From Flavobacteriales bacterium (lineage in GTDB: Bacteria; Bacteroidota; Bacteroidia; UBA10329), in contig JAIPBM010000008.1 of the NCBI GenBank assembly GCA_021739695.1, positions 37,013 to 101,012 of the forward strand: a stretch of DNA of 64,000 nucleotides, given 5' to 3'. Of the stretch, positions 3,085 to 57,791 are shown in pieces. Position 1 is the first letter of the stretch. Every line of letters begins with the position of its first letter. Under the pieces are notes generated by a model. It saw nothing but the letters and a program-made list of their open reading frames with translations, did no database searches and was not told the DNA's origin. The translations under genes and the position numbers were made by a program.

Positions 3085-3120
3085 AAAAGAGAGCCAAAGC
3101 TCTCTTTTTGTCATTGTGCT
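3085..3120. terminator. Bidirectional rho-independent terminator
   Basis: A-run, then GAGAGC-caaa-GCTCTC hairpin, then T-run (aaaaaaaaagagagccaaagctctcttttt). It lies just downstream of the MORN gene stop (minus strand). Confidence 0.5.
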
Positions 3121-16067: not shown

Positions 16068-16180
16068 GCGATTATGGGTTATGGTAATAATTAGAATCAA
16101 CGAAGGTAGGCAAAGGCAGCTACGCAAATCACATAGAACAACAGATTATTATCAACTTTGGTCAGAATTCAGACCAACGG

Positions 16181-17032: not shown

Positions 17033-17131
17033 GCCCAAAGTTACTACGACCGTTTGATTCAACCCTTACCTAACGCGGAGATGTGATAAAACTTACATTT
17101 CGTGGTATAAACATCGTTTATTTCGCAGCGC

Positions 17132-17290
17132 ATGAATTGGGGATTATTCGCATTTGTTGTTGCTTTTTTGGCCTGGATATCAGCCAACTACCATAGACGC
17201 AGAGGGTATTTCTTTTGGAGAACATTCATTATGGCGTGCATGGGTTTTGCTGGTCTCGGCCTCATGCTTTATGGTCTATACACCAAATAA
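17132..17290 (+). CDS. Unannotated small membrane protein, 52 aa, two predicted TM helices
   Basis: ATG at 17132 and TAA at 17288-17290. Translates to MNWGLFAFVVAFLAWISANYHRRRGYFFWRTFIMACMGFAGLGLMLYGLYTK. It is below the 60-aa cutoff of the ORF track. It lies in the divergent intergenic region between the OM barrel and ASST-like genes. Confidence 0.3.
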   Translation: MNWGLFAFVVAFLAWISANYHRRRGYFFWRTFIMACMGFAGLGLMLYGLYTK

Positions 17291-17387
17291 AATATTGTTT
17301 ATAAACCTGTTGATACCGAATCTTCACTTTTCGAATCGGCATGACATCGAGTTATATTTTGGCCAATTCTAACCAACAAGATACTTT

Positions 17388-19067: not shown

Positions 19068-19087
19068 CCCTTTTCGAACAATCTGGC

Positions 19088-19126
19088 AAAGGCCCATCGC
19101 AGCTGCGATGGGCCTTTCTTTTTGGT
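19088..19126 (+). terminator. Rho-independent terminator after the ASST-like gene
   Basis: AAAGGCCCATCGCagcTGCGATGGGCCTTTcttttt. Confidence 0.6.
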
Positions 19127-19166
19127 TCAGTAAAATTTACGTATTTCGTAGCGCAACAACCCCAAC

Positions 19167-22100
19167 ATGATGAGAACACTTTTATTGACCTTCAGTCTTT
19201 TCCTTTCAAGCAACCTAATCTTCGCCCAAAGCAACATTAACTGGGTCAGTTCGCTTTCCAATGATCAGGGGTTCATAGAGAACAAAGGTCAATTCGATGG
19301 CTTCGCGGAATCAAACTCATCAGAAATACGCTACGCGTTAGACGGTGGAAATTCGATGATTCTATTTACCAACGAAGGATTTACGTTCCGTTTTACCAAA
19401 AAAATAAAGAACAAGAATCGGACAAAAGGAGACGAGACCAAACCAAAATATCTTGAAGAGAAGGAGATTGTTTCTGTCAAGTGGATCGGCATAAACAAGC
19501 AGGCAGCCATTGTTTCTGAGGAAATCCTAAATGATAAACACTTCTATGCTTCAGGTAATATGGAAGTGGGTAGCACGATTGAAAATGTGAATGGTTTTGC
19601 CAAGCTCGTTTACAAGAACGCATACCCAAAGATTGACATTGAATTCACTGTTCATCCTATATCCGGAATCAAGTACGATATAATTCTACATCCAGGAGCG
19701 GATCCATCTCGGATCAAAATGACATACACATCCAAAAGCCAACCTGTAATTGACACTGAAGGAAATGTGATCATCTCTACCGAATTCGGTGACATAATCG
19801 ACCACGCACCTTCGACCTCATACTCTAAGTCTGGCAACAAGATCAACTCGAAATTCAAGTTGGATGGGAACACGGTACGTTTTGAACTTGGCGGTTACAG
19901 TGCCGACCAAGAAGTAGTTATCGATCCATGGGTTCAAACTCCTGCATTTCCGAATTCTGGTGGCATTTGGGACATCGATGTGGACGACCTAGGAAACGTT
20001 TACGTCTATGGAGGCGACACTCCAATGAGACTTCGCAAATATGATGCGCTTGGCAACATTCTTTGGACCTACAACACGCCTTGGGATTCGGCCAATTATT
20101 GGATCGGAACGATGATCACTGAACCGACAACGGGAGACTGCTTCATTACCGCTGGTACTGACCCACGTATTTCACGCATCAGCACTGCTGGTAATTTACT
20201 TTGGACGGCAAGTGGTGGCGCTTTCGATGAGTATTGGAAATTCTCGTTCAACTGCGATTTTACCCGATTGATGCTCGGAGGTACTCGTCTATCGCTTGGC
20301 GGTGGAGTTGGTTTGATTGATGGTTATGGCTACGTGTTTGAAATAAATATGAGCAATGGTGCTCAGATAGGAAACCTCGAAGTTGCAAGTGTCACGCCTG
20401 GCCCTTTAGGGCTGGCCAGCAATCCGAATGAAGTTCGCGCCATGTGTCCTTCTCCTAACGGGAAATACTATTTCATGACCCTTGATTCCATTGGAAGTTT
20501 TGATGATAACCTTGTGTTAGGCTATAAAGACAACCACGGCTACGGATTCTCATATCAAGTGGCAGGTTATGGTGTCACCAATCAAAGCATAAACGCTATG
20601 GTGGCCACCACCGATTATCTGTATACTCAAAATGGTGCTATACTTCACAAAAGAAATATTGTTGATGGGTCCATCATTTCTTCCGTTCCAATTCCAAGCG
20701 GCACAACCAGTTCCCAACTGGGTTTCGCCTCGGCAGAAAATGGCGGATTGGCCATTGATAGCTGTGGAAACCTCTATGCAGGTTCGGGAAACGGTGTTTA
20801 TAAATTCGATGAGAATTTGAATCCATTAGGTTCTCAAACAACTTCGAACCGAGTTTATGACGTTGCAGTAAATCGCGCAGGCGAAGTAGTTGCTTGCGGA
20901 CAAGGATTTGTTGCTTCACTCAACCTTACGCCTTGCGCTCCAGCAAAAGCAATTTGTCTTAATTGTCTTGAACTCTCTCCTTTAGGTCCATATTGCCAAA
21001 CGGATGGACAAGACACCTTGGTTGCTTCAGCACCAGGAATCTGGACTGGCCCAGGCATTATCGATCAAGCACTAGGAATCTTTGATCCTGCGGTTGCAGA
21101 TACAGGGACGCACGTGATTCACTTTGCGCCTGAAATTCCATTTGAATGTGGCATTGATTCTTTGGTGATCGAAGTAAACTATTGTGTCGATCTTCTAGCT
21201 TGCGTCAACCTTGCTGGTGATATTACGGTCTCCGAAGGAACGGCACCTTACACATGGTCTCAGTTGATTGACACTGTGGATTGCAGCACATGTATTGCCT
21301 TTCCAGGTTTTGGACCATGCGATTTCCCTCCTGGTTGTTCGGTTGCTAGTACCATGTGGGTAGAATTCGCCACTGACACAACCATAACTCCAACTGGAAA
21401 CTGGCCGATAATGGTGGAAGATGCAGAAGGAAATGCGTTGGAGATAAACTCGGTTTCAGAACTTCCAGCGTGTGAAAGCGGTTGCTTCCTTTCTGTGAAT
21501 TTGCCACCTCAAGTAATTGCTTGCACCGGTGATAGTGCGATTGCCACCGCTGCTCCCACGGGTGTTATCGGAACTGCACTATTCTCTTGGAATACCGTTC
21601 CAGTGCAAACAACCGCTACTGCGGTTGGCCTTGTTCCAGGAAACTACTACACAGTAACCGTTACTGACGATAGTTCTTGTGTGGCCATCGATTCTGTTTT
21701 CGTTGTAGAACAGGAATGCATTGGCCCAGTGGTCTGTGTCAATCCGTTCAATGATCTGATGGCTGAAGGAATCGCCCCATTTACATGGTTCCAGTTTGTA
21801 AGCTCCACCGATTGTAGCGGATGTTTTGAAGTACCCGGATTCCCACCGTGTTCATTCCCTCCCGGATGTGCAGTGACCATTAACGAATGGCAGCAGTTTG
21901 CAACCGGGGAAATGGCAACGCCAACCGGAAACTGGCCAATAGCAGTTTTGGATGGCGTTGGAGATACCTTATTTATCAATTCACTTTCGGAATTACCTGC
22001 TTGTGCGCAGATATGCTACATTTCGGTTGATGTGCCAGCGCAGGCTTTTGTTTGCAATGGTCAATCCAATGGAGAAGTTACCGCTAACGTTTCGGGCGCG

Positions 22101-23444
22101 TTTGGAACCGTGTCTTATTCATGGAATACTGCACCCGTCCAAACCACAGCCACGGCAACCGGACTTGCTGTCGGCACTTATATAGTAACTGTCACCGATG
22201 ACAACAGTTGTTTAGATAGCGATACAGTAGAAGTTGAAATGTTACCGCAAATTCTGTTGCAATCGTCTGGAACTGATTCTCTTTGCTTAGGCGTAACTGT
22301 TGGCAGCGCTTCTGTAATAGCAACAGGTGGGGCAGGTTCTTATCAGTACTCTTGGAACACTTCGCCTGTTCAAACATCAGCTACGGCCACTGGGCTTGGC
22401 GTTGGTTCTTACACCGTTACAGTGACAGATCTTACTGGTTGCACCTCTATGGAAACATGGTCAATCGAAGAGCGAATTTCCGTTTTAGTTCAAGTGGGTG
22501 CAACAGATGATATTTGCGTTGGATCAACGGATGGAACTGCGACTGCATCTGCTTCAAATGGATCTGGCAACTACACTTATTCATGGAACACAACCCCTGT
22601 TCAAAATGGAGCAACGGCAAGCGGTTTATCTTCAGGAACCTATCAGGTAACTGCAACAGATGTAGATGGTTGTCAAGGAGTTGCTTCTGTTACCATTGGA
22701 ACGCTTCTTGCGGTTGCAGTGGATGCAGGACCAACCACATCAATTTGCTTAGGACAACAGACTGATCTTTTGGCGACTGGTGGCATTTCATATTTATGGA
22801 ATACTGGTGAAACGACCGCATCTATAACCGTGATGCCAACTGAAACCACGCTATACGAGGTTACTGCAACCGACAACAATAATTGCGAAGCAAGTGACAC
22901 GGTTACTGTATTTGTCGTAGCTATTCCGCAAGTAACGATTGTTGAACCCGATTCTCTTGTTTGTGATGTTGAACAGCCATTCCAGCTTGTGGGAAATCCA
23001 ACCGGTGGAACGTTCTCAGGAACTGGAGTGAATTCAGACGGTATGTTTGACCCGATGGCTGCAGGAAACGGAGCACATGTTGTCACTTACACCTTCGGTT
23101 CTGTAGCGAATTGCGATGTAGACACGTCTGTAGTAATTGTAGTTGATGAACATTTGTGCGATGTAATCGCTCCGAATGTTTTCAACCCGAATTCCGATTT
23201 TAGTGGTCAAGCAGATTTCTGTGGGAATGTTCCGCAGAATAACGTTTTCAGCCTTCCTTGTTTAGAATGGTATCCAGGTAATCGTGTCCGGATTTTTGAC
23301 CGTTGGGGAATTAAGCAATATGATCAAATTGACTATCATTTGAAGCCTTGGACAGGCGACAATCAAAGCGATGGCATTTACTACTACATCTTAGAAATAC
23401 AGAACGAAGAAACGATAAAAGGATTCTTCCATTTGATCAGATAG
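19167..23444 (+). CDS. SprB-repeat cell-surface adhesin with T9SS type-B (gliding-motility-associated) C-terminal domain
   Basis: Signal peptide. More than 8 copies of SxNT.PVQT.ATA.GL..G.Y.VTVTD..GC (SprB repeat pattern). C-terminus ...APNVFNPNSDFSG...RIFDRWGIKQY...DGIYYYILE...GFFHLIR matches the CHU_C/type-B CTD pattern. Confidence 0.75.
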   Translation: MMRTLLLTFSLFLSSNLIFAQSNINWVSSLSNDQGFIENKGQFDGFAESNSSEIRYALDGGNSMILFTNEGFTFRFTKKIKNKNRTKGDETKPKYLEEKEIVSVKWIGINKQAAIVSEEILNDKHFYASGNMEVGSTIENVNGFAKLVYKNAYPKIDIEFTVHPISGIKYDIILHPGADPSRIKMTYTSKSQPVIDTEGNVIISTEFGDIIDHAPSTSYSKSGNKINSKFKLDGNTVRFELGGYSADQEVVIDPWVQTPAFPNSGGIWDIDVDDLGNVYVYGGDTPMRLRKYDALGNILWTYNTPWDSANYWIGTMITEPTTGDCFITAGTDPRISRISTAGNLLWTASGGAFDEYWKFSFNCDFTRLMLGGTRLSLGGGVGLIDGYGYVFEINMSNGAQIGNLEVASVTPGPLGLASNPNEVRAMCPSPNGKYYFMTLDSIGSFDDNLVLGYKDNHGYGFSYQVAGYGVTNQSINAMVATTDYLYTQNGAILHKRNIVDGSIISSVPIPSGTTSSQLGFASAENGGLAIDSCGNLYAGSGNGVYKFDENLNPLGSQTTSNRVYDVAVNRAGEVVACGQGFVASLNLTPCAPAKAICLNCLELSPLGPYCQTDGQDTLVASAPGIWTGPGIIDQALGIFDPAVADTGTHVIHFAPEIPFECGIDSLVIEVNYCVDLLACVNLAGDITVSEGTAPYTWSQLIDTVDCSTCIAFPGFGPCDFPPGCSVASTMWVEFATDTTITPTGNWPIMVEDAEGNALEINSVSELPACESGCFLSVNLPPQVIACTGDSAIATAAPTGVIGTALFSWNTVPVQTTATAVGLVPGNYYTVTVTDDSSCVAIDSVFVVEQECIGPVVCVNPFNDLMAEGIAPFTWFQFVSSTDCSGCFEVPGFPPCSFPPGCAVTINEWQQFATGEMATPTGNWPIAVLDGVGDTLFINSLSELPACAQICYISVDVPAQAFVCNGQSNGEVTANVSGAFGTVSYSWNTAPVQTTATATGLAVGTYIVTVTDDNSCLDSDTVEVEMLPQILLQSSGTDSLCLGVTVGSASVIATGGAGSYQYSWNTSPVQTSATATGLGVGSYTVTVTDLTGCTSMETWSIEERISVLVQVGATDDICVGSTDGTATASASNGSGNYTYSWNTTPVQNGATASGLSSGTYQVTATDVDGCQGVASVTIGTLLAVAVDAGPTTSICLGQQTDLLATGGISYLWNTGETTASITVMPTETTLYEVTATDNNNCEASDTVTVFVVAIPQVTIVEPDSLVCDVEQPFQLVGNPTGGTFSGTGVNSDGMFDPMAAGNGAHVVTYTFGSVANCDVDTSVVIVVDEHLCDVIAPNVFNPNSDFSGQADFCGNVPQNNVFSLPCLEWYPGNRVRIFDRWGIKQYDQIDYHLKPWTGDNQSDGIYYYILEIQNEETIKGFFHLIR

Positions 23445-34881: not shown

Positions 34882-35626
34882 TCTTCTTGTAAACGTAATT
34901 GATATTTATTGTAGCTGCATTTTGCTGTTCGCGCAGCCTTTGCTCGTCTTGAAGCTGCCGTTCAGCCTGTTCGCGTCTTTCTCGTTCTGCATCAGGAAAC
35001 CATGCTGGTACTTCTTCTTCAACTACATAATCCCAAGAATATTTTGGCCGTTGCGGACCTTGCTTCCGATAAACGAAGGCAACTACGATTCCGGCAAGAA
35101 GGCCGAAAAAATGACCTTCGTAAGAAACATGAACATCAATTGGAAGTACACCCCAAACCAGACTTCCGTACATAAAAACCACCAAGAGCGACAAAGCCAT
35201 CAGTTTGAGATGCTTTCGGAGTAATCCGCTCACGAATAGAAAGCCAAAAAGTGCATACACAATTCCGCTGGCACCAATGTGAAAATTGGCCCTCCCTCCT
35301 ATCCAAAGCCAAACACCGCTAAGCAAATAGACCCAAAGCAATGTCTTTGATGCTACTTCACGATAGAAGTAGAACAACATGCTTCCAAGAATGAATAAGG
35401 CAGTTGAATTATTGAACAGATGCTTCCAATCTGCATGAATGAACGGATAGGAAAGGATTCCTAAAAGACCAGAAACCTGGCGAGGCAAAACTCCATACTG
35501 AACCAGATTAACGTCAAAAGCAATCTCTCCTAGCTTCACGAGAACGAGAATGATCACTAATGTTCCAGGAATAATGGTGCTAGAAAACAGTTCCTTTTTC
35601 ACCTGATAAAAGTAAGGCCTCTCCAA
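34853..35626 (-). CDS. Rhomboid-family intramembrane serine protease
   Basis: Catalytic GASG in HIGASGIVYALFG and His in GHFFGLLAG. 6-7 TM helices. Charged Gln/Arg-rich C-terminal tail. Confidence 0.75.
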   Translation of the reverse strand: MERPYFYQVKKELFSSTIIPGTLVIILVLVKLGEIAFDVNLVQYGVLPRQVSGLLGILSYPFIHADWKHLFNNSTALFILGSMLFYFYREVASKTLLWVYLLSGVWLWIGGRANFHIGASGIVYALFGFLFVSGLLRKHLKLMALSLLVVFMYGSLVWGVLPIDVHVSYEGHFFGLLAGIVVAFVYRKQGPQRPKYSWDYVVEEEVPAWFPDAERERREQAERQLQDEQRLREQQNAATININYVYKKNENTQSRDK

Positions 35627-35680
35627 TTACTGAAGAGGCCTTAAATAGAGGTTGGATAATACTTGTAATCCGAGCTATGG

Positions 35681-37867
35681 CTAGCTTTTGATGTAGCGCA
35701 CAGTGGTCATACTTCCTGCAGCTTGAATTCGAATAAAATAGACACCGTTAGCAAACTGGCTAATGTCCATTCGTTGGGTAAAGTCGTTCGTGCCATTGAT
35801 AACTACGGCAGGCAAAAGAGCTTGTCCAAGCATGTTCGTCAATTCAATTGAAACGTTTTCAGAACTTGGCAATTGTCCGCGGATCGTGAATTCTCCTTTT
35901 CCTGGATTAGGATAGACATCAAGCACATCAAATATGCTGTACTCTTCTACCCCAACATTGAAGGTGAACTCATAAATGTAAGTTTCTGTAGGGCAACCAT
36001 TAGGTCCAATGTACTCCACATGATAGTTTCCACTCTGGATTGCATCGAACGTAAGACCTGTTGCTCCTGGAATCGGGTCTCCATTGATGAACCATTGGTA
36101 TCCAGATCCAGGTGGATCTACTGTGAGATTATTATTTCCATTATCAACGATTATGGCTTCATCCATCGGTGTCACATCAACTGTAATCGTATTCGAAATG
36201 CCTTCGCATCCGTACTGGTTCGTAACTGTTACAAAGTAATCGCCAGATTCAGTAACAACCGTTGAAGCATTTGTTCCGTTAGTAATTTCCCAATCATATG
36301 CACCTTGATTGAGCGCTGTAGAAAGCGTCACTGTTTCTCCTTCGCAAAATAACAATGGACCATTAGCAGTAATAACAGGAGCGGGAACTGGCTGAACCGT
36401 TACGTTAGCAATCGTTGATGTTCCCTCACATCCGTCAGCGTCCGTTACAGTAACCGAATACTGACCGCTGGCACTTACCGTAATTGATTCGGTTTGATCT
36501 GCTGTATTCCATTCGTAGCTCGCAAAACCAGGCGTTGCTGTCAAATCTAAGGTTTGCCCAGCGCAAAGTTCCAAAGCACCATTATTGCTCGAAGTAATTG
36601 TAACAGAAGGTCCGGCACCTACTTCAATGTCAATTGAAGCAATATTGGTACAGCCCAAGTTGTTTGTGTAGGTGTAAGATATAGTGTGCATTCCGCCACC
36701 AACAGCGCTCGGATTGAATACTCCGTTGCTTACTCCAGCACCTGCGAACGAACCTCCAGCAGGAGATGCCGAAAGGGTTACTGGTGTGCTTGATTCGCAA
36801 AGTGGTGCTACTGCTGTAATGCTAACATCTGGAAGCGTATTTGCAAGCGCGAACGCAGGTTGATTGAAGTCTGTCCAGCCTGAGTTGGTAACAGTATTAT
36901 ATCCGCCTACTGTTCCTATAGCTTCATTGGTCATATCTTCCCACTGAGGTGTTCCTTGCCAGTGAGATCCTGAAGACCAATCGCCATCATTTGCAGAGAC
37001 ATAGTATTGTGTGATATCAGCAGCGTCAGAACCAGCCGTATGATCGATAAGATTATAGAACTGATCGTTCACGATACATAATTCTGAACCGATCTGATTA
37101 ACGTCAAAACCTTCAGAAGTAGCATTCACATTGGCCATTCTTAGGGCAAACGTATTTGCTGAACTAGCGTTAGGAGTAATTGCCACAGGTCGAATTCTTG
37201 CTGTTCCAACACTGCTTCCTACAGGAAAAACGTAGGTATCAGTACTATTCATATCCCATGAGAACCGACCGTTTCCAAGACTACTTACAAAACCACCATT
37301 TTCAGTTACGGCAGATGAAGCAGTATTCAAAACCCGAAGTGTGTTAACATCGGTAGCTAACTGCAAATTTCCAAGAGCTAAAACGCCTGCAACTTCAGCA
37401 TCAAGACCCAAAGTTTTAATGCCAGAACCAAGTAAGTTCAAATTGTAAAAGGTAGAAACTGCTGTTCCCGTAACGATCTGATTTGCTCCGGTCAGATTCA
37501 CAATGCTCTGGTCAGATGTGAAAACTGAATTATTCTCCCAATTTCCTTCCACATTGAAAATACCAGTGTTTCCACCACCACCGGTCAGAAGATCGCCATT
37601 TGTCAAGTCACCTTCAATCGTGATACGCCCAGCATTTTCAATCGAACCTAGATCATTGTTAAGATCACCTGTTTTAATAGAAACGATACATCCTGAACTT
37701 ACCGTCACCTCAGCTCCATTGTTCTGAACAATAAACTGAGCGAAAACATTGGACGACCCAAACAAACCTATTGCAGTAAACATCGCAAGAAACACTCGAA
37801 AATTTGCCATTGTTTTGTATTCAAATTTCTTCATAATAGAGTCTTTAGATAAAGATTTCCTAAACAA
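35681..37867 (-). CDS. T9SS type-A CTD surface protein with Ig-like/SprB-like repeats
   Basis: Signal peptide at MANFRVFLAMFTAIGLFGSSNVFAQ (likely start 37810 or 37834). Repeats with Y.W..G......TV..SG.Y.VTVTD..GCEG. C-terminal VYPNPGKGEFTIRG...GVYFIRIQAAGSMTTVRYIKS is a T9SS CTD. Confidence 0.7.
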   Translation of the reverse strand: MFRKSLSKDSIMKKFEYKTMANFRVFLAMFTAIGLFGSSNVFAQFIVQNNGAEVTVSSGCIVSIKTGDLNNDLGSIENAGRITIEGDLTNGDLLTGGGGNTGIFNVEGNWENNSVFTSDQSIVNLTGANQIVTGTAVSTFYNLNLLGSGIKTLGLDAEVAGVLALGNLQLATDVNTLRVLNTASSAVTENGGFVSSLGNGRFSWDMNSTDTYVFPVGSSVGTARIRPVAITPNASSANTFALRMANVNATSEGFDVNQIGSELCIVNDQFYNLIDHTAGSDAADITQYYVSANDGDWSSGSHWQGTPQWEDMTNEAIGTVGGYNTVTNSGWTDFNQPAFALANTLPDVSITAVAPLCESSTPVTLSASPAGGSFAGAGVSNGVFNPSAVGGGMHTISYTYTNNLGCTNIASIDIEVGAGPSVTITSSNNGALELCAGQTLDLTATPGFASYEWNTADQTESITVSASGQYSVTVTDADGCEGTSTIANVTVQPVPAPVITANGPLLFCEGETVTLSTALNQGAYDWEITNGTNASTVVTESGDYFVTVTNQYGCEGISNTITVDVTPMDEAIIVDNGNNNLTVDPPGSGYQWFINGDPIPGATGLTFDAIQSGNYHVEYIGPNGCPTETYIYEFTFNVGVEEYSIFDVLDVYPNPGKGEFTIRGQLPSSENVSIELTNMLGQALLPAVVINGTNDFTQRMDISQFANGVYFIRIQAAGSMTTVRYIKS

Positions 37868-37872: not shown

Positions 37873-39078
37873 TTAATTGTACACTTCCACAATAGTCGTG
37901 GTAAAACTACCATGTCTAAGCATCACGATCTTGTAGGTAGGGTAAGCGTTGGAATCTTCCTTAGAGAGGTAGAAAATAATACCTGGCCCGTAACTATCAG
38001 ATGTTAAAAACATATCCGTATTTATTGTGACCCAACTTCCTGAAGTGAAATTAATATCATCCGCACCTGAGTGTGGGGTTTGAGTGACCGAATTCCCATG
38101 CCATTCACCAATAAAGAACACGTCCCACCAACCATCATGGCCTGTGTTAAAGTTTAACTCAAGGTCGTCATCCGCTGAGTTCCATCTAAAACTCACGTTG
38201 GCGTCGCTATAGAAAGTTGTCGTAACAGCTTCAGAAAACGTTGTTTTAGTACCAGCTCCGCCTCCTGCAGGACCAGTGGGCCCTGTAGCTCCTGCAGGAC
38301 CAGTTGCCCCATCCTGACCATCAGTGCCATCGGCTCCGTCTTGGCCATCAACTCCGTCCTGTCCGTCTGCTCCGTCCAGTCCGTCCAATCCTGCAAGACC
38401 TTGAGGACCAGGCAACCCTTGAACGCCTTGAGGTCCTGCTGGTCCTTGGGGACCAATCAATCCATCTGCCCCAGCTGGTCCTTGTGGGCCTGTTGCCCCA
38501 TCCTGACCATCAACTCCATCTTGTCCGTCTGCTCCGTCCTGTCCATCCAATCCTGCTGGGCCTTGTGGTCCCTGTGGTCCTGCCGGGCCTGTTGCTCCAT
38601 CCTGTCCATCAGCACCATCTTGACCGTTTGCTCCGTCTTGTCCATCGGCTCCATTCTGCCCATCCAATCCCGCTGGCCCTTGTGGTCCTGCTGGGCCTGT
38701 GGCTCCATCCTGCCCATCGGCACCATCTTGACCGTTTGCTCCGTCTTGTCCATCGGCTCCATCTTGTCCGTCCAATCCTGATAGGCCTTGAGGGCCTGGA
38801 TTGCCCATTGGGCCAATGGCCTGAACCCATTGAGTTCCATCAAAGTACCAGAATTGGTTATCATCGGTGTCAAAAACCAATAAACCGGTTGCAGGAGAGA
38901 GGATGAGCGTCCGTTGCTGAGTCGACATCCTTGGAGTCAGGAAACCTTTATCTGATGACGTCAAGTCCAACACAGCACTGGCATCAGGAGATATGGTGCC
39001 AATCCCCATGTTGTCCTGTGCAATCAAAGAAGCACTCGAACCAAATAGAATACATACTACGTAAAGTATTTTTTTCAT
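37873..39078 (-). CDS. Collagen-like (G-X-Y triple-helix repeat) surface protein 1, with a conserved N-terminal module and a beta-rich C-terminal domain
   Basis: Signal peptide, then N-module DNMGIGTISPDASAVLDLTSSDKGFLTPRMSTQQRTLILSPATGLLVFDTDDNQFWYFDGTQWVQ. About 180 aa of uninterrupted GXY ([20 protein letters not shown]...). 130-aa C-terminal globular domain. Confidence 0.75.
   Translation of the reverse strand: MKKILYVVCILFGSSASLIAQDNMGIGTISPDASAVLDLTSSDKGFLTPRMSTQQRTLILSPATGLLVFDTDDNQFWYFDGTQWVQAIGPMGNPGPQGLSGLDGQDGADGQDGANGQDGADGQDGATGPAGPQGPAGLDGQNGADGQDGANGQDGADGQDGATGPAGPQGPQGPAGLDGQDGADGQDGVDGQDGATGPQGPAGADGLIGPQGPAGPQGVQGLPGPQGLAGLDGLDGADGQDGVDGQDGADGTDGQDGATGPAGATGPTGPAGGGAGTKTTFSEAVTTTFYSDANVSFRWNSADDDLELNFNTGHDGWWDVFFIGEWHGNSVTQTPHSGADDINFTSGSWVTINTDMFLTSDSYGPGIIFYLSKEDSNAYPTYKIVMLRHGSFTTTIVEVYN
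38274..38811. repeat. Collagen-like coding tandem repeat, gene 1 (GXY codon repeats, near-identical DNA units)
   Basis: Reiterated units such as ggtcctgccgggcctgttgctccatcctgtccatcagcaccatcttgaccgtttgctccgtcttgtccatcggctcc. Mirror-frame ORFs appear on the + strand as an artefact. Confidence 0.7.
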
Positions 39079-39129
39079 TATCTTTTTTCAGATAAACGAC
39101 TTTATTTCAATCCACCAATCAATTGGCTG

Positions 39130-42054
39130 CTATTTGTTTAGGCTATCTGATTTGGTAATTCCTTTTCGTTGATTCGAATCAGATTCATAATCTAGCGCAC
39201 TTTGAGAACGATCTGCCCCATACAACTCGGGTCTGATATACTTACCAGCAATCTTACCTGTTTTCTCTATCTCTACCTCCAGTTTTTCAGGGTTTTGCTT
39301 CATATACTCATCATTTCGAGCGCCCGTTAGCATCCAACTAATCTTCACACCAGGAGATCCTCCAGCAACAGAGAATGAATTTCCATCAAACTCCTTCGAT
39401 ACGTATATCTGCGTTGTTGGTCCCATAGGAGTGACGTTGTACGTGAAATCCCTGTTGATCGCAGCCACATACTCAGGCAAAGCTATTACAGCCTCACCGT
39501 TCTCGTCCAAATTTACTTTTCCACGATAGAATAATAGTGGCTCATTCGATTCAGTATTAAAGTGGCGAAGAATCTTGTTCTGCGGATCCAAAGGGTGGTC
39601 AATTACAAAATATTTAGCACCTGAGCCTCCAAAGTCACCATTAGAGTAAACGCCATATAACGCAGCTCCTGAATTGTCCGAACCATAAACACCGGCCCAT
39701 CCATCGATAGATTCTCCTCGGACTCCGTACCACCCTCCTCTGCCTTCAACACCGATACCCCAAAGGGAAGACGGGTACGAGAATCCTTCTACCCCAGGAT
39801 AGTCATTCACAGTTGAACCACTAAAAGCTCCATATACTCCAACCTCAGCACCAATGCCATAGGTTCCAATCCAACCTGTACTGTTACCATATGAACCTAC
39901 TGCATCAACAGCGTAACCTGACACTGCAAGATTAACCCCTGTAGCGTGTGAACTGAAGATATTGTCAGAAGGTGGCGTTGTACTTGCAACCGCAACTCGA
40001 ATCCCGTCATCAAATATCTGGGAGCAAACTGCCGAACTTCCGTTAGACTTAACAACAATGTTTGCTGTTGAGCATCCTACAGGTCCTGCTGGACCTTGCT
40101 GTCCTTGTGGTCCAGCTGGCCCCTGTGCCCCGGCTACTCCCGCTGGGCCTTGGGTTCCTTGCGGCCCAGGCAATCCTTGAACTCCTTGTGGACCTGCTGG
40201 ACCCTGTGGTCCTATCAGTCCATCAGCTCCTGTCGGGCCTTGTGGGCCTACGGGTCCTGTTGCTCCATCCTGTCCATCAGCACCATCTTGGCCATCTGCT
40301 CCGTCCTGTCCATCGACTCCATCTTGTCCATCAACTCCTGCTGGGCCTTGTGGGCCAGGCAATCCTTGAACTCCTTGTGGACCTGCTGGACCCTGTGGCC
40401 CTATCAGTCCATCAGCTCCTGTCGGGCCTTGTGGGCCTACAGGTCCTGTTGCTCCATCCTGTCCATCAGCACCATCTGCTCCGTCCTGTCCATCGGCTCC
40501 ATCTTGTCCATCAACTCCTGCTGGGCCTTGTGGGCCTACGGGTCCTGTTGCTCCATCCTGTCCATCAGCACCATCTTGGCCATCTGCTCCGTCCTGTCCA
40601 TCAACTCCTGCTGGACCTTGTGGGCCAGGCAATCCTTGAACTCCTTGTGGACCTGCTGGACCCTGTGGTCCTATCAGTCCATCAGCTCCTGTCGGGCCTT
40701 GTGGGCCTACAGGTCCTGTTGCTCCATCCTGTCCATCAGCACCATCTGCTCCGTCCTGTCCATCGACTCCGTCCTGTCCATCAACTCCTGCTGGGCCTTG
40801 TGGGCCAGGCAATCCTTGAACTCCTTGTGGACCTGCTGGACCCTGTGGTCCTATAAGTCCATCAGCTCCTGTCGGGCCTTGTGGGCCTACAGGTCCTGTT
40901 GCTCCATCCTGTCCATCAGCACCATCTGCTCCGTCCTGTCCATCGACTCCATCTTGTCCATCAACTCCTGCTGGGCCTTGTGGGCCAAGCAATCCTTGAA
41001 CTCCTTGTGGACCTGCTGGACCCTGTGGCCCTATCAGTCCATCAGCTCCTGTCGGGCCTTGTGGGCCTGCTGGGCCTGTGGCTCCATCCTGTCCATCCAA
41101 TCCTGCTGGGCCTTGCGGTCCCTGTGGTCCTGCCGGGCCAGTTGCGCCATCCTGTCCATCAGCACCATCTTGACCGTCTGCTCCGTCCTGTCCATCGACC
41201 CCATTCAATCCCGCTGGGCCTTGTGGTCCCTGTGGTCCTGCCGGGCCAGTTGCGCCATCCTGTCCATCAGCGCCTGTCGGACCTTGTGGTCCCTGTGGGC
41301 CTGCTGGGCCTGTTGCTCCATCCTGTCCATCAGCACCATCTTGACCGTCTGCTCCATCCTGTCCATCTGCGCCATCTTGACCGTCTGCTCCGTCTTGTCC
41401 ATCGGCTCCATCCTGTCCGTCCAATCCTGCTGGGCCTTGTGGTCCTGCCGGGCCAGTTGCGCCATCCTGTCCATCAGCGCCTGTCGGACCTTGTGGTCCC
41501 TGTGGGCCTGCTGGGCCTGTGGCTCCATCCTGTCCATCAGCACCATCTTGACCGTCTGCTCCATCCTGTCCATCCAATCCAGCTGGGCCTTGTGGTCCTG
41601 CTGGGCCTGTAACACCATCCTGTCCATCGGCACCATCTTGACCGTCTTGTCCATCGGCTCCATTCAATCCCGCTGGACCTTGTGGTCCCTGTGGGCCTGC
41701 TGGGCCTTGAGGACCTACAGCTCCTGTTGCTCCTTGAAGCCCAGGCGTTCCGTTAGTACCCGCTGGACCTGCAGGCCCTTGCGGCCCAACAGATTGAACC
41801 CAGATAGTTCCATCGAAATACCAGAATTTATTATCGTTAGTGTCATATACCATCAGACCCGTTGCAGGGGAAGCAATGGCGGTTCTTTGAATTGTGCTAA
41901 GCCTAGGGACGAGTAAACCTTTATCCGTGGCAGATAGGTCTAAGACCGCTGAAGGATTTGGCGTTGATGTTCCAATACCCATGTTATCCTGAGCCAAAGA
42001 CTCAAATGTGATAAGGCTGGTAAGAACTGAAAATACGAGTAGGACTTTTTTCAT
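39130..42054 (-). CDS. Collagen-like (G-X-Y triple-helix repeat) surface protein 2. It has the same N-module, about 570 aa of GXY and a Gly/Tyr-rich tail-fibre-like C-terminal domain.
   Basis: N-module [68 protein letters not shown] run from about aa 88 to 660. C-terminal ...GVYGAFSG...[17 protein letters not shown]...[65 protein letters not shown].... Confidence 0.8.
40075..41795. repeat. Collagen-like coding tandem repeat, gene 2. Units of 180-270 nt are repeated with near-perfect identity.
   Basis: The marker string caatccttgaactccttgtggacctgctgg recurs at 40171, 40360, 40630, 40810 and 40990 (spacings 189, 270, 180, 180 nt). The flanking sequence is nearly identical between copies. Confidence 0.75.
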
Positions 42055-43561: not shown

Positions 43562-45673
43562 ATGAAGAAAATTATTGCTTGCCTAGCTGTGATGGCCGGG
43601 CTTTCTGCATCCGTATTGGCAGAAGACAACGGTTACGAATACTCGATCACGGTAAATCCCGAAGACATTACCATTGTGAGAGACAAATGGGGTGTTCCTC
43701 ATATTTTCGGAAAAACAGACGCAGACGTTGCGTATGGATTGGCTTGGGCCAATGCAGAGGATGATTTTTATACCATGCAGGAACTCGTTATTACTGCAAA
43801 AGGCCTTGCTGGGAAAATGCTCGGGGTTGAAGGGGCTGAACGTGATTTCTTTTCGCACGCTTTAGGATATCGGGAACGCGTTGAAAAGGACTTCAGTCAA
43901 CTTTCTGCTGATTATGTGAAGTACATAGAAGGTTATTGCCAAGGAGTTAATGCTTACGCCAAATTGCATAAGAAAGAAGTGCGGGTAAAAGGTACTTTCC
44001 CTATCAACCCAAAAGATGTGGTTGGTGGATACATGTTTGCGCTGAGTGCGCTTATTGGAACTCCAGGTGCTGTTGGTAAGATCATGGATGGTACATATGA
44101 TAAAGACCAACCTTCTGACCTTCCTTATGGATCTAACGCATTTGCTTTCAACAGCAATAAAACTTCAGATGGCAGTTCCATGCTTTGCATCAATCCTCAT
44201 CAACCAGTTACAGGTCCATTTTCTTGGTATGAAGCGCATTTGTGCAGCGAAGAAGGTTTGAATATTCACGGTGCAATGTTCCCAGGTAGCTCAACAGTAT
44301 TTTTAGGGAATAACGAACATTTGGGATGGGCGCACACGTTCAATCACTTAGATCTTGTGGATGTATTTCAGTTAGAAATGCATCCGAGCAAAAAGCATCT
44401 GTACAAATTCAATGGTGAGTGGAAAAAGATTGAGAAACGACCTGTTTGGTTGAAGGTGAAATTGGCAAAAGGCATCGTTTTTCCTGTAAGAAGAATGACA
44501 TATTGGAGCGAATTCGGAACTACTTTAAAATCTCCGGACGGAAATTATTACGCGGTCAAACTTCCAGGAAACGAACGAATCCGCGTTGGAGAACAGTGGT
44601 ATAGAATGGATAAGGCCAAAAACTATTCAGAATTCTACGATGCGCTCAGAATGGAATCAATCTCCATGTTCAATATTATTTATGCGGATGAAAACGATAC
44701 GGTGATGTACCTGAACAATGCCGTTGTTCCAAAACGGAATCCAGAAGTTGATTACTCTGGCGTTGTAAAAAGCAATTCCGATAAAACCATGTGGACTGAA
44801 TTTCATCATGTGGAAGACCTTATCCAGACCCTGAACCCGAAATGTGGTTGGGTTTTTAACACAAACAATAATCCAGTGCATGCAACGGCTAAAAATGAGT
44901 GGCAAAGTCTTGATGACTATCCAGCATCATTTGGCATAAGTGATAATGGCGAGAATAATAGAGCTGAACGATTTTTAGAACTGATGCGCGAAAAAGCTTC
45001 AGACCAAGTTTCATTCGAGCGGATGAAAAAAATGAAATTCGATTATGAATTTCCCGCTTGTGGCGCATACCAGAATTCCATCGAAAATCTCTTTCATGTA
45101 AACCCTAGCGATTACCCGGAATTGGCTCCACTTATCACAACTATAAACGCTTGGGATAAAAGAGGAGACAAAGAGAATAGAGGTGCCGGAGCATATCTTA
45201 TCACCTTTCAAAAAGTGTTTTCCATGATGGGATTTTCTGATGGCGAATTCAAACGCTCCGTAAGTATTCCAGACACGACTTACGTAAAAGCACTTCGTTG
45301 GGCGAAGAATCAAATAGATACGCATTACGATGGTAAAATTCCAGCGCTAGGCGAAGTGCAGCGTCATGTTCGTGGAGATGTTAATCTTCCGCTCAGCGGA
45401 TTTCCTGATGCGCTCGCTGCCAATTACAACGAAGAATGGAAAGATGGAAGGTACAAGCCTTGGGTTGCCGATTCGTATGTTCATTTTGTCCAATGGAAAG
45501 ACAAGAAAATAGTCCGAATGGAAACTTTGCACCCTTTTGGTGCATCTACCCGACCAAACTCTCCACATTACACTGATCAGATGCAATTATATGCCGATCA
45601 GCAGACCAAAACCATGACTTTGGACAAGGAGAAGATCTTTGCAGAGGCAGAATCGATCTATCACCCAAAATGA
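43562..45673 (+). CDS. Secreted penicillin-acylase-family Ntn hydrolase (possible N-acyl-homoserine-lactone or beta-lactam acylase), paralog 1
   Basis: Signal peptide MKKIIACLAVMAGLSASVLA. Alpha-subunit motif IVRDKWGVPHIFGKTDADVAYGLAWANAEDDFYTMQ. Predicted autoproteolytic site/nucleophile in YGSNAFAF. 703 aa. Confidence 0.85.
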   Translation: MKKIIACLAVMAGLSASVLAEDNGYEYSITVNPEDITIVRDKWGVPHIFGKTDADVAYGLAWANAEDDFYTMQELVITAKGLAGKMLGVEGAERDFFSHALGYRERVEKDFSQLSADYVKYIEGYCQGVNAYAKLHKKEVRVKGTFPINPKDVVGGYMFALSALIGTPGAVGKIMDGTYDKDQPSDLPYGSNAFAFNSNKTSDGSSMLCINPHQPVTGPFSWYEAHLCSEEGLNIHGAMFPGSSTVFLGNNEHLGWAHTFNHLDLVDVFQLEMHPSKKHLYKFNGEWKKIEKRPVWLKVKLAKGIVFPVRRMTYWSEFGTTLKSPDGNYYAVKLPGNERIRVGEQWYRMDKAKNYSEFYDALRMESISMFNIIYADENDTVMYLNNAVVPKRNPEVDYSGVVKSNSDKTMWTEFHHVEDLIQTLNPKCGWVFNTNNNPVHATAKNEWQSLDDYPASFGISDNGENNRAERFLELMREKASDQVSFERMKKMKFDYEFPACGAYQNSIENLFHVNPSDYPELAPLITTINAWDKRGDKENRGAGAYLITFQKVFSMMGFSDGEFKRSVSIPDTTYVKALRWAKNQIDTHYDGKIPALGEVQRHVRGDVNLPLSGFPDALAANYNEEWKDGRYKPWVADSYVHFVQWKDKKIVRMETLHPFGASTRPNSPHYTDQMQLYADQQTKTMTLDKEKIFAEAESIYHPK

Positions 45674-45768: not shown

Positions 45769-47892
45769 ATGCCCCAAAAACCATTGATGCTGGTTGCCAT
45801 CCTTTTTGCAACTACTAGCCTTTTCGCTGGCAAACCGAAAATCTCTGAAAACGAGCCAAACAGCACTGGTTCTCAATTTGAGAAGATTGATATCGCTAAG
45901 ATTCAAATAGTCCGCGACCAGTGGGGCGTGCCTCACATTTTTGCCGATCAAGATCACGAAGTTGCCTATGGCTTGGCTTGGGCCAATGCTGAAGACGATT
46001 TCGGAACCATGCAAGAACTTCTTATTGCAGGTCAAGGTCGATCTGGACAACTGATGGGAAAAGATGGCGCCAAGCGCGATTTTCTACTTCACGCATTTGG
46101 AGTGAAAGATGTGGTTGATGCGAAATTTGATTCCGCTTTCAGCGAAGAATACAAGCAGTACTTAGACGGTTATGCGCAAGGAATCAATGCGTATGCGAGT
46201 TCGTATCCAGACGAGGTGCTCCTGCACGGACTCTTTCCAATATCTGGGAAAGACCTCGTTTACGGGAACGTGTTTGCAGCGTGCATCGTTTCTGGCGGGC
46301 ACTTAGAAGTGGCCAACATACTTAACGGAGAATACGATGGCGGCACAACTTGGCTTGGTTCCAATGCCATGGCTTTCAATCAGAATAAGACTGAAGACGA
46401 AAGCACGATACTGGTTGTCAATCCACACCAACCAATGGAAGGTCCATTTTCTTGGTACGAAGCGCATCTCTGCAGCAACGAAGGATTGAATATCCTTGGT
46501 GGGCTTTTTCCCGGAGGACCATCGGTTTTCTTGGGGACCAACGAAAATCTTGGTTGGGCACACACGGTCAATAAACTTGATCTGGTAGATGTGTTCAAAC
46601 TGAAAATGAATGAAGAAAAAAAACACTCGTATCAGCTTGATGGAGAATGGTTTGAATTGGATAAACGACTCACCTTCCTAAAGGTGAAATTGAGCAACAT
46701 TCTTACCGTGCCAATTCCTAAAATGACATATTGGAGTAAGTACGGAGCCACCATCAAATCAAAAGATGGTGATTACTACTCGGTTCGATTAGCAGCAAAC
46801 CAAAAGATCAATACGATTGAGGAAATCTATCGAATGAACAAGGCCAAGAATTTTGATGAATTCTACGAAGCCTTGAGCATGGAAGCGCATCCGCGATATA
46901 ACGTGATCTATGCCGACCGCGAAGGAAATATCATGTACCTGAACAACGGACTTATTCCAAAACGGAATGAGGATTACAACTGGGCTTCCGTGCTGCCTGG
47001 TGACACGAGCGCCACGTTGTGGACAGAATTCCACCCAATTCAGGAACGGCCTCAGATCGTTAATCCTGCTTGTGGTTATGTTTTCAATACGAACAACACT
47101 CCTTTTAACGCAACATGCGAAAGTGAGAACATGAATCCGATGGATTATCCACCATACTTCGGATTTGAGCATGGAGACAACAATAGAAGTACACGCTTGA
47201 TGCAATTACTGGAAGAACAAGAAACCGTAAATCTAGAAGAGGTTAAGCGAATGAAATTCGATTGTCAACTGCCTGATTCAAGCACGTTCTTCAATTCGGT
47301 TGACAATTTCATGCAACTTGACCCGAACAGTTTTCCAGATGTAGCGGAAAGTATTGTGAAGATGCAGAATTGGGACAGGCGTGCCGACAAGGAAAGTGAA
47401 GCGGCTGGAATGTACCTTCTCACCTATCATTACATTTTCGATAAGTTGAAGCTTGGAACGGAAGCTTTCATTGATGGAATGGATGTGGACGATAACCTAT
47501 TTATTGAAGCGGTTACTTACGCCAACGAGCATTTGATGGAATACTTTAAAACACTGGACGTCACACTTGGCGAATTGCAAGTACATGTTCGTGGAGAGAA
47601 AGAATATGGTGTAAACGGTTTTGCAGATGCATTGGCTGCCAACTACAATATGCCTTATACCAATGGTCGGTTCAAGACCTTTGTGGCTGATTCATACGTG
47701 CAATTTGCACAATGGAAAACAGGCGAGGAAGTTTCGTTGCAAACGCTGCATCCGTATGGCGCTTCCAACAGAGAATGGTCTGCGCACTACAATGATCAAA
47801 TGGAATTATATGCCAATCAGCAGACCAAGAAGATGACATTGAACAAGGAAGAGATCTTTGCAAACGCAGAGAAAATCTATCATCCAAAGTAA
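45769..47892 (+). CDS. Secreted penicillin-acylase-family Ntn hydrolase, paralog 2 (tandem duplicate)
   Basis: Signal peptide MPQKPLMLVAILFATTSLFAG. IVRDQWGVPHIFADQDHEVAYGLAWANAEDDFGTMQ. LGSNAMAF. 707 aa. Alignable to paralog 1 over its whole length. Confidence 0.85.
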   Translation: MPQKPLMLVAILFATTSLFAGKPKISENEPNSTGSQFEKIDIAKIQIVRDQWGVPHIFADQDHEVAYGLAWANAEDDFGTMQELLIAGQGRSGQLMGKDGAKRDFLLHAFGVKDVVDAKFDSAFSEEYKQYLDGYAQGINAYASSYPDEVLLHGLFPISGKDLVYGNVFAACIVSGGHLEVANILNGEYDGGTTWLGSNAMAFNQNKTEDESTILVVNPHQPMEGPFSWYEAHLCSNEGLNILGGLFPGGPSVFLGTNENLGWAHTVNKLDLVDVFKLKMNEEKKHSYQLDGEWFELDKRLTFLKVKLSNILTVPIPKMTYWSKYGATIKSKDGDYYSVRLAANQKINTIEEIYRMNKAKNFDEFYEALSMEAHPRYNVIYADREGNIMYLNNGLIPKRNEDYNWASVLPGDTSATLWTEFHPIQERPQIVNPACGYVFNTNNTPFNATCESENMNPMDYPPYFGFEHGDNNRSTRLMQLLEEQETVNLEEVKRMKFDCQLPDSSTFFNSVDNFMQLDPNSFPDVAESIVKMQNWDRRADKESEAAGMYLLTYHYIFDKLKLGTEAFIDGMDVDDNLFIEAVTYANEHLMEYFKTLDVTLGELQVHVRGEKEYGVNGFADALAANYNMPYTNGRFKTFVADSYVQFAQWKTGEEVSLQTLHPYGASNREWSAHYNDQMELYANQQTKKMTLNKEEIFANAEKIYHPK

Positions 47893-55490: not shown

Positions 55491-57791
55491 TTAGCTTGAA
55501 ATACGATACCATTTTGACCCCATGAACATAATTATTGCTCCTTCTCCATGTTCGACATTGAAGTCCTCGATGAATTGCTGGGTTCCTTGGTTTTTCTTGA
55601 ATTCAACTTTATCGTTACTAGCTGTATTTACAACATAGATAATCTGACCATCTACACCACCGGATAGCCCTCTGATGTCCTTATCATTACTGTAAGTTAC
55701 TTCAAGAATGGATACTCCTGACACATCTTGACTGGTTACATTACTTGAAAGAGAAAGACTAAGTGTCGTACCCGAACTACCGCCAGATGGAATAGTTTGT
55801 GTAGAAAGGGTTCCGTTTGAAGAAGCAACCACCATTCTTGTTCCGCTTCCCGCAAGATCCGAGATTCGTGCATCGCCACTAACATGCAAAGATGTGCTCG
55901 GAGAGGATGTTCCAATGCCTACCTTACCTGATGAGCGATAAACGTTGGAACCACTTTGACTCCAAACACTGCTTCCACCGCTTGGAATTGCTTGAGTAGA
56001 AAGGTCTCCATTCGCATCGGCCACCACCATTCTTGTTCCACTACCACCCAGATCTGTGATACGTGCATCACCGCTTACATGAAGGGTAGCCTGTGGATTA
56101 TTATTGCCGAAACCGATATTACCTGACGAACCGCTGATAAAAATGCTGTTCTCGGTACTATTTCGAGTGAGAACAAAATCATGATCATAACTATTCATGT
56201 AAGCTCTGTTCGTGAAAATACCCGATGTGCTGGAATTGGCAAACCCGAATGTTGCTGACAATGACCCTGACTGATCCATGAAATCAACACTGCTCCAACC
56301 ATTACTTGCACTGCTTTGTAGCGTCATCACATTGGCATTGGAAGTGCTGCTAATAACATGCAAAGCTGTGCTTGGAGAAGATGTTCCAATTCCCACCTTA
56401 CCTGATGAGCGATAAACGTTTGAACCACTTTGACTCCAAAGGCTGCTTCCACCGCCTGGAATTGCCTGAGTAGAAAGGTCTCCATTCGCATCGGCCACCA
56501 CCATTCTTGTTCCACTTCCAGCCAGATCAGAGATTCGTGCATCGCCACTGACATGCAACTTAGCAACCGGATTACTTGTGCCAACTCCGATATTCCCTGT
56601 ATTGATTATTGTCAGTGCCTGAACAACATCACTTGGAAAGTTATCTGCAAACGTTCCTCCTGCCCCATTTGCAACCCCTCGCTTAACCAAGAACGCCAAA
56701 CCTGCAGAGTAGCTGTCATAATCTATCATCTGAATCGCTGCTCCAGGGTTTGAAAAACCGCCTCTTCCAAAACCAATTTCAGGACCTTCTGCAGGGTTTG
56801 GAACTGCTGTTGTTCCACCAAGAGATACGCCACTGGTTCCATTTCCATAAATATGTAAGCGTGTGTCAGGATTAGTAGTTCCCATACCGATACTTCCTGT
56901 CGGCAAAATGGTCATTCGAGAATCAGTTAGTGATAAGGACTGATTGTCTTGAGTCCCAGATACCATGAAGTGAAGTTTACCATAACCGTAGTTACCAATT
57001 CGTTCATGGAAAATACCTGCTTTCATCCAATCTCCTGCTCCTTCACTGTTGAAACCAATACCTACTCCATTACCTCCTGTTTGCGTTCCGTTTGTATTTC
57101 GTATAAACAATGGCATATTCATTCCATTGTTATTTACTTGCAAATGAAGTAATTGATTCGGAGTAGCTGTACCAATCCCCACGTTTCCACTCTCACTTAT
57201 TCGCATCAATTCTGTCGGTGACGTCATGCTGTTCTTACCGAAACGGATAGCGCGGGTATCACTGTCATTATTATTATAATCCATGGTGATGTAAACATCA
57301 TCTTCACCACTCATTCGAATGTTTCCGTTGTCATCATAGATATCATCATTGACGATGATCTTACCTCCAACGTGCAGCTTTTCGAGCGGAACAGCTACCC
57401 CAATGCCCACATTACCATCATCAGCAATTCGGATTCCCTCGCTGCCTCCATCATTGGAAAGCCAATGGTCGTCCATTTGAATATTCGCAGCAGCAATATG
57501 ATCACCGAAGTTATCTGCTCCTCCTCCGAATTCTGTCCAAACGGTTCCATTATAATACTTGAATCCTTTGGTTGCATTCGTCTGATACACAATCAACCCT
57601 TCAGTTGGACCGCTGATGGCGTTCATCTGAGCCTGTGTCATCTTTGGCAGAAGAAACCCGGATGTTGTCGATCTCAATTCGAGTAATGCGTCAGTATTAG
57701 GAGTAAAGCTGGTATTGCCAATTCCTACATTCTGCGCAAAGGCAACGGCACTTGAAAAGGTGCAAATTAGGGTGAGTACTTGTCTGTTCAT
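55491..57791 (-). CDS. Repeat-rich secreted surface protein. It shares the N-terminal module of the collagen-like proteins and has internal ~65-aa repeats rich in GIGT.
   Basis: Signal peptide. N-module [67 protein letters not shown]. At least 3 copies of HVSGDARI(S/T)DL(A/G)[56 protein letters not shown] repeats about 90% identical. Confidence 0.7.
55720..56560. repeat. Intragenic DNA repeats (about 170-nt units, ~92% identity, 474 nt apart)
   Basis: Compare 55905-56073 with 56379-56550 (gatgttccaat...ccttacctgatgagcgataaacgtt...ccattcttgttcc...). Confidence 0.6.

Follow-up and report, generated by a model that had tools for sequence, protein, structure and literature searches.

Collagen-stalked fibre genes linked to a type IX secretion cargo gene in a Flavobacteriales bacterium

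Results

Architecture of the two collagen-like genes

We analysed a stretch of 64,000 nucleotides (nt) from a Flavobacteriales bacterium (NCBI GenBank assembly GCA_021739695.1, contig JAIPBM010000008.1, positions 37,013 to 101,012 of the forward strand). This whole stretch is called the window, and all positions without a locus label refer to it. Two adjacent genes on the minus strand, g1 (37873-39078, 401 amino acids (aa)) and g2 (39130-42054, 974 aa), encode collagen-like proteins. They are followed by a gene for a protein of the type IX secretion system (T9SS). We argue below that g1 and g2 probably encode trimeric fibres with a collagen stalk and an exchangeable tip. Both are open reading frames (ORFs) that match the Pfam Collagen family (PF01391), with E values of 9e-29 for g1 and 1.7e-87 for g2 (99.4 and 287.6 bits against a cut-off of 27.2).

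The two proteins present the same order of parts. Each starts with a Sec-type signal peptide ending in alanine before a glutamine, as read from the sequence. In g2 it covers aa 1-21 (41992-42054) and consists of a basic N-terminus, a hydrophobic core and a small residue, with glutamine at position +1. The N-module comes next. It is a small beta-rich domain of the PF26696 type in g2 (aa 22-89, 41788-41991), assigned from the labels of its homologues and from an AlphaFold2 (AF2) model. The g1 module (aa 21-88, 38815-39018) shares 72% protein identity with it. The collagen region, or stalk, follows. It has 62 Gly-X-Y triplets in g1 (186 aa, aa 89-274, 38257-38814) and 191 in g2 (573 aa, aa 90-662, 40069-41787), with zero interruptions in either gene. 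The commonest triplets are GPQ, GQD, GAD, GPA and GAT.

The C-termini of the two proteins are unrelated to each other. That of g1 is a near-orphan domain of 127 aa (37876-38256). Towards its own C-terminus (312 aa), g2 presents a junction bracketed by cysteines (aa 661-684, 40003-40074), a Gly/Tyr-rich region of GVYG repeats (aa ~700-812, 39619-39957), defined by the family consensus, and a beta-sandwich tip domain (aa ~813-955, 39190-39618). A preliminary description of this DNA had proposed a signal peptide, a shared N-module, uninterrupted Gly-X-Y runs of about 180 and 570 aa, and distinct C-termini. The ORFs, the Pfam matches and the triplet counts agree with it, and the composition claimed for the runs matches the dominant triplets. 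Other ORFs cross the collagen repeats off-frame or antisense (40096-41916, 40062-40856 and 38304-38906 on the plus strand, among others, up to 606 aa). We rejected them as genes; they are a by-product of the stop-poor codon pattern of Gly-X-Y repeats.

A T9SS cargo gene next to the fibre genes

The preliminary description missed the next gene on the minus strand (35681-37834, with its start at 37834 or 37810). Its product ends in a C-terminal sorting domain (CTD) of T9SS type A, matched by Por_Secre_tail (E = 3e-13) and TIGR04183, with scores of 50.3 bits against 27 and 45 against 23. The rest of this partner protein consists of Ig/PKD-like domains and an N-terminal domain of ~380 aa, which matches no Pfam or NCBIfam family. 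A match of the partner to All3314 (7b5h) in the PDB covers only the Ig-like stretch, and we discounted it.

The three genes are co-directional, with gaps of 51 nt between g2 and g1 and ~38 nt between g1 and the T9SS gene. After the latter lies a terminator-like hairpin on the minus strand (35613-35643) with a stem of 14 bp. Hairpin stems inside g2, g1 and the T9SS gene do not exceed 7 bp, and the only other terminator-like site on the minus strand has a 7-bp stem and falls inside the T9SS gene. Since the gaps are short and the sole long-stem hairpin comes after the T9SS gene, g2, g1 and the T9SS gene probably form one operon. A σ70 promoter scan returned 8 sites against 8.2 expected; Bacteroidota promoters differ from this type.

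The link between fibre genes and this partner is found in other lineages. In a Bacteroidia metagenome-assembled genome (L002; L and P numbers label related loci and proteins), a partner homologue with 42% identity lies between two N-module collagen genes. In L006, an orthologue with 63% identity comes after two collagen genes. A metagenome scan with an alignment of the partner N-terminal domain recovered 18 loci. Fifteen have an adjacent N-module gene, collagen gene or both, nearly always upstream and co-oriented; one has none, and two were too short. L006 also carries an extra gene (2836-3315), absent from the window, for a 159-aa protein with a signal peptide; it separates the proximal collagen gene from the T9SS partner.

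Repeats in the stalk DNA

The stalk DNA is built of repeats with periods of 18 to 450 nt, and every period reported by Tandem Repeats Finder is a multiple of 9, as the preliminary description had claimed for the units. g2 contains copies at spacings of 180, 189, 270 and 450 nt that are 95-99% identical. The youngest array lies at 40236-41136 on the minus strand, with copies 95-98.9% identical at offsets of 180, 270 and 450 nt. Around nt 960-1620 of the gene, windows of 180 nt have partners 95-98.9% identical at both the 180- and 450-nt offsets. Exact repeats in g2 extend up to 96 nt. An older pair of copies, at an offset of 207 nt, is ~90% identical. The earlier statement of almost perfect tandem copies holds for ~700 nt of g2; in the remaining array, the copies are 60-90% similar. 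One 20-residue block occurs five times in g2, and its spacing (180, 180, 270 and 189 nt) reproduces exactly that of the marker noted before. The same block occurs once in g1. Between g1 and g2, collagen units are up to 95.6% identical across 90 nt and up to 85.6% across 180 nt; the preliminary description had placed the same unit family in both genes.

We also compared codon identity, counted only where the amino acids are identical, for which random synonymous choice gives an expectation of 0.47. Within g2, copies show a codon identity of 0.85, and 23% of the pairs reach at least 95%. Between the stalks of g1 and g2, the mean is 0.63, with a local maximum of 0.90. These values support the view that the g2 repeats are recent intragenic duplicates, with some exchange between g1 and g2, in line with the duplication and exchange suggested previously. 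The N-modules of the two genes show a codon identity of 0.42. Because this sharing is close to random choice, g1 and g2 are old paralogues.

Stalk length in related loci

Repeats of this kind could mean a contingency locus. The number of repeats would then change frequently in populations, through RecA-dependent or slipped-strand events, and fibre length would be an adaptive switching trait. The near-identity of the g2 copies, the long exact repeats and the in-frame periods all agree with this. Stalk lengths also differ between lineages: 62 triplets in g1, 67 in L019, 191 in g2, at least 222 in L016 and more than 400 in L002. BclA, a protein of the Bacillus exosporium, is length polymorphic between strains. 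Polymorphism in the length of the collagen region is likewise reported for Lcl, according to titles cited in PMC11162425.

However, the related loci show a different pattern. The collagen gene next to the T9SS gene has 88-91 triplets in eight of them, from at least five lineages: 90 in L006 and L020, 89 in L015, 91 in L013 and L014, and 88 in L017, L022 and L024. Across these loci, stalk identity is no more than 55-82%, and three unrelated groups of tips are represented. L013 (933-2534) and L014 (273-1874) come from two metagenome strains. They are ~99.7% identical over 4.2 kb except for a stalk block of ~500 nt, where the ungapped identity falls to 48-78%. One allele consists of GADGADGATG units and the other of GTDGTDGLDGA units; both genes nevertheless have 91 triplets. 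The L014 allele is also present in a third assembly, L012 (3-809), so it is unlikely to be an assembly artefact. Since the block differs and the count does not, the stalk sequence turns over while its length is kept. Stalk length appears to be under selection, and we regard the contingency locus as rather unlikely. The preliminary description had called the locus length-variable, and this part of it is not supported. Length can change over evolutionary time, as the 62 triplets of g1 and the 67 of L019 show. In the distal gene, equivalent to g2, the counts are at least 95, 108 and 222, the last in L016, and more than 400 in L002; contig ends truncate the gene in these loci.

Properties of the stalk and its location

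The calculated composition of the stalks is strongly acidic. They have no Lys or Arg, with 29 Asp in g1 and 75 in g2, and an isoelectric point of ~4. Pro represents 11-14% of the residues (14% in g2) and Gln 12-14% (14% in g2). This raises the question of whether the Gly-X-Y region forms a stable triple helix. It could instead serve as a low-complexity acidic spacer, or as a polyanion in the periplasm or outside the cell that might, for instance, bind cations, and the Pfam match would reflect composition only. A stalk free of Lys and Arg has no means of forming the charge pairs from which certain bacterial collagens gain stability. The low Pro content and the Asp at the Y position in 39-47% of the triplets point the same way. 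Against this, Gly occupies every third residue without interruption for 573 residues, and also does so in relatives that evolve independently. Pro occupies 40% of the X positions in g2, and putative trimeric domains are predicted on both sides of the stalk. As the strict Gly periodicity is kept in all relatives, the helix probably forms, and we consider the spacer or polyanion improbable.

If fully triple-helical, the stalks would measure ~53 nm in g1 and ~164 nm in g2 by calculation. Such lengths far exceed the periplasm, which speaks for an extracellular location if the helix forms.

The N-module family

The size of the N-module family had also been overlooked. A word-indexed search gave nine N-module fragments only, and the exhaustive search (phmmer) revealed the true size, with 43,054 representative proteins at E<=1e-3, of which 12,424 remain at E<=1e-10. 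The module occurs at any position in a protein, in up to 15 copies, and is combined elsewhere with YadA-head-like and other fibre repeats. Its close homologues P0041-P0049 bear a precomputed PF26696 label, as do P0003 and P0005; together they are 48-85% identical to the g2 module. Our local Pfam copy gave no match to PF26696, neither for the N-module nor in the scans of nine C-domain homologues.

The AF2 model of the g2 module has a high confidence (predicted local distance difference test, pLDDT, of 95.5). The predicted fold bears a weak resemblance to the domains that trimerise phage tailspikes and collagens XV/XVIII (multiplexin). A profile of 71 N-modules found no match among the PDB sequences. 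The preliminary description had chosen the C-terminal domain of g2 to nucleate the helix; judging from its predicted fold, the N-module could fill this role at least equally well.

A third N-module gene in the window, not noticed before, lies at 55491-57791 on the minus strand and adjoins parA/parB. Its 766-aa product presents a signal peptide, an N-module and then a non-collagen stalk with repeated NVGIGT..P...LHV segments and internal duplications of ~100 aa.

Junction and tips

The junction contains the only two cysteines of mature g2, C661 and C677, in the pattern C-x15-C. It is kept after the collagen region in L002-L006, L016, L017, L020 and L022, which represent several Bacteroidota lineages. 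A reasonable interpretation is that it may form an inter-chain disulphide knot. The junction motif is also present in a non-collagen protein of Flavobacterium sedimenticola with S74 and a T9SS CTD. When contigs were scanned with the g2 C-region, no orthologous genome appeared, and four of the five matches covered only the junction motif. The GVYG region that follows has G.GV.G repeats as its family consensus and low pLDDT in the monomer model.

Neither the g2 C-region nor the g1 C-domain gave anything significant in Pfam, PHROGs or PDB sequence searches. For the g1 C-domain, the word-indexed search found a single homologue (P0040). The g2 tip defines a family, FxIDHPxDP, which is in no Pfam, PHROG or NCBIfam library searched. 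We found 39 cellular relatives and at least 80 viral loci, the latter confirmed after a search of IMG/VR with the FxIDHPxDP pattern. The domain always occupies the C-terminal end in the viral loci. g2 has all the invariant columns at its C-terminus (F-x-I-D-H-P-x-D-P ... H ... W ... R-x-D ... K). The predicted fold resembles the fibre tips of R-pyocin, AP22 and Pam1. The earlier guess of a tail-fibre-type domain is therefore supported by the presence of the family in viral fibre proteins and by this fold.

Six residues of the tip are invariant across the 39 homologues, from several phyla: D159, H160, H171, R253, D255 and K271 (C-region numbering; window ~39260-39600). They might coordinate a metal on the axis of the trimer, by analogy with certain phage and pyocin fibres, or else take part in catalysis or ligand binding. 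A metagenome-assembled genome of Candidatus Kapaibacterium (L001, 2-6043) carries three tandem genes, each ending in a g2-type tip.

Among relatives with N-modules 67-86% identical, the C-termini belong to at least five unrelated groups. Peptidase_S74 tips, which are intramolecular chaperones, are present in L016 (E = 2e-14) and L019 (E = 3e-14), with a weak match in L017. The tips of g1, g2, L006, L013 and L024 are not of the S74 type. Judged by these sequences, relatives swap their tips, the S74 tips included.

Genomic context and the phage question

The viral distribution of the tip raises another explanation. g1 and g2 could derive from a phage and encode tail fibres of a prophage, a tailocin or a phage-like particle instead of cell-surface fibres. 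The tip domain is common in viral contigs, the predicted folds of tip and N-module resemble phage receptor-binding and tailspike domains, and the N-module weakly matches PHROG and DUF2793. However, no phage genes flank the locus in the window. The neighbours are dnaN, an ABC-2 transporter with auxiliary proteins, a rhomboid protease, a metallophosphoesterase, two penicillin amidases and an S41 peptidase. The preliminary description had named a prophage position as evidence against its proposal; the locus is chromosomal and not a prophage. Moreover, g1 and g2 have Sec signal peptides, for which a virion protein would have no use because virions are assembled in the cytoplasm, and the operon with the T9SS cargo gene is conserved across lineages. 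The N-module was not found in the flanks of the 80 viral loci examined (6 kb, or less at contig ends). A phage origin is thus very improbable.

Two giant-virus-like contigs carry proteins with a related composition (L041, 3403-6486; L048, 2644-6375 and 6501-9359). Their neighbours include PCNA-like, RNA polymerase subunit 2-like and AAA ATPase genes. The proteins combine collagen runs (48 triplets in L041 and 115 in L048), YadA-head-like repeats and a C-terminal FxIDHPxDP tip.

Farther off, the window contains parA/parB, signal peptidase I and several T9SS cargo genes, including one for a SprB-repeat/CHU_C protein. The abundance of T9SS cargo genes agrees with an origin in the Bacteroidota. 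The penicillin amidases are tandem paralogues of the Ntn-hydrolase type (43562-45673 and 45769-47892, plus strand), beyond the divergent metallophosphoesterase gene. A large T9SS cargo cluster extends over 11589-23444. It encodes a 1512-aa MAM/P-domain protein, an arylsulfotransferase with a CTD, and a 1425-aa DUF7948/SprB-repeat/CHU_C protein. The region of aa ~1211-1335 of the last weakly matches the N-terminal profile of the fibre partner, probably via its Ig-like part.

Discussion

Comparison with known systems

Most of what is known about collagen-like fibres in bacteria comes from Firmicutes and Legionella. We found no description of this Bacteroidota fibre family in the open-access literature searched, and searches on PF26696 and on Bacteroidota collagen-like proteins returned nothing or off-target papers. 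Relative to that literature, three features are new: the presence of a T9SS cargo gene in the probable operon, the constancy of stalk length despite allelic replacement of blocks, and the widespread tip domain, which is described in none of the domain libraries searched.

BclA is a protein of Gram-positive spores, with GPT-rich glycosylated repeats and a C1q/TNF-like tip. It shares with the fibres proposed for g1 and g2 a conserved N-terminal attachment end, a collagen stalk encoded by DNA repeats and a globular, trimeric C-terminal tip, and its repeat number sets the length of the filament. In contrast with its polymorphic length, relatives of this locus keep 88-91 triplets.

In Lcl of Legionella and Scl1/Scl2 of streptococci, too, globular domains lie on either side of Gly-X-Y repeats. 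The tandem repeats of Lcl are variable, and Lcl homologues occur in Bacteroidota (PMC11162425). The Lcl model (NF046116) gives 74.9 bits for g1 and 206.9 for g2 against a cut-off of 500, over profile positions 52-260 only. With the Scl models (NF038329/NF038330), g1 reaches 105 against 325, and g2 reaches 337 against 325 with SclB, via repeat length only. The matches are limited to the Gly-rich part and LPXTG is absent, so we rejected membership of both families. The polarity of Scl is also reversed, with a variable N-terminal domain and a C-terminal anchor.

Together with BclA, the mosaic adhesive trimer (MAT) fibres of Bdellovibrio bacteriovorus are the closest analogues. They have a signal peptide, a conserved N-domain, a trimeric stalk and swappable tips of the S74 and non-S74 types, and their surface display is proven (PMC10769870). 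The cell-surface element that holds the MAT N-domain is unknown (PMC10769870). Relatives of g1 and g2 share with MAT fibres the signal peptide, the N-domain and the swappable tips. In MAT, however, the N-domain has ~130 aa and belongs to another family, and the stalk is a beta-helix. Here the module has 68 aa, the stalk is collagen, and the host is a member of the Bacteroidota with a T9SS and a linked cargo gene. Membership of the MAT superfamily is unlikely, given the short N-module, and the likeness is architectural. We place the locus, with its collagen stalks, in a large class of mosaic fibres that resemble tail fibres, and it would function in the manner of MAT fibres and BclA.

Finally, phage and giant-virus fibres share the C-terminal FxIDHPxDP tip, and those of L041 and L048 add Gly-X-Y triplets to it. 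The viral fibre proteins have neither signal peptide nor N-module. g1 and g2 lie on the chromosome, where a T9SS cargo gene belongs to their presumed operon.

Proposed organisation of the fibres

The best explanation overall, which we hold with reasonable though not high confidence, is that the locus encodes collagen-stalked trimeric fibres with exchangeable tips, a T9SS-secreted partner and a length-constrained stalk. g1 and g2 are old paralogues that would encode Sec-exported, probably homotrimeric fibres made of three parts. The N-module, beta-rich and of ~68 aa, probably acts as a node for trimerisation or registration and as the conserved, cell-proximal end, and its very large family recurs along fibre-like proteins. 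The stalk would be the acidic collagen triple helix. The distal tip of g2 would be the exchangeable part, with the two-Cys junction, the Gly/Tyr-rich region and the beta-sandwich of ~145 aa. As the beta-sandwich family also caps phage and giant-virus fibres, the tip is most likely a domain for ligand binding and trimer capping. The T9SS-secreted protein, probably co-transcribed, may serve as a surface partner, either as a dock or as an export helper. Stalk DNA would evolve by in-frame duplication and deletion of units, gene conversion and replacement of whole blocks. In the T9SS-proximal gene, stalk length would be under selection rather than a free-running switch. The sequences themselves show the domain architecture, the repeats, the homologies, the linkage of the genes and the conservation of length. 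We infer from them the export beyond the periplasm, trimer formation, surface display, the function of the tip and the role of the T9SS partner.

Some points weigh against this explanation. g1 and g2 have no T9SS CTD, LPXTG, lipobox or beta-barrel according to Pfam, NCBIfam and a check of the sequence, and none of the signals found seems to explain their route across the outer membrane. Since no CTD of type A (TIGR04183/PF18962) or type B matches them, we rejected g1 and g2 as T9SS cargo themselves. There is no T9SS partner next to the third N-module gene (55491-57791), which means that N-module fibres do not in general depend on one. The stalks of g1 and L019 depart from the 88-91 rule. In addition, the distal gene is cut by the contig end in every related locus seen, and metagenome assembly of repeats can go wrong, though one allele was seen in two assemblies.

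A more specific model is speculative, and we give it a low probability. The fibres and the CTD protein would form a two-component system that depends on the T9SS. The CTD protein would carry the tag-less fibres through the T9SS, or the fibres would dock on it through the N-module. The stalk would be a calibrated spacer, of ~90 triplets in the proximal gene. Strains would differ in its sequence, through replacement, but keep its length, for instance as a way to evade phages, grazers or antibodies, and the tips would be exchanged with a pool in phages and giant viruses.

Significance

The locus is a natural modular scaffold, with a trimerising node, a collagen stalk and an exchangeable tip, of interest for the design of recombinant collagens. 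It also offers a testable example of a bacterial collagen stalk with conserved length and sequence turnover. The tip domain is common to bacteria, phages and giant viruses, and is a candidate receptor-binding module. Finally, the conserved genetic linkage of the tag-less fibres to a T9SS cargo protein could reveal how Bacteroidota proteins without a CTD are displayed.

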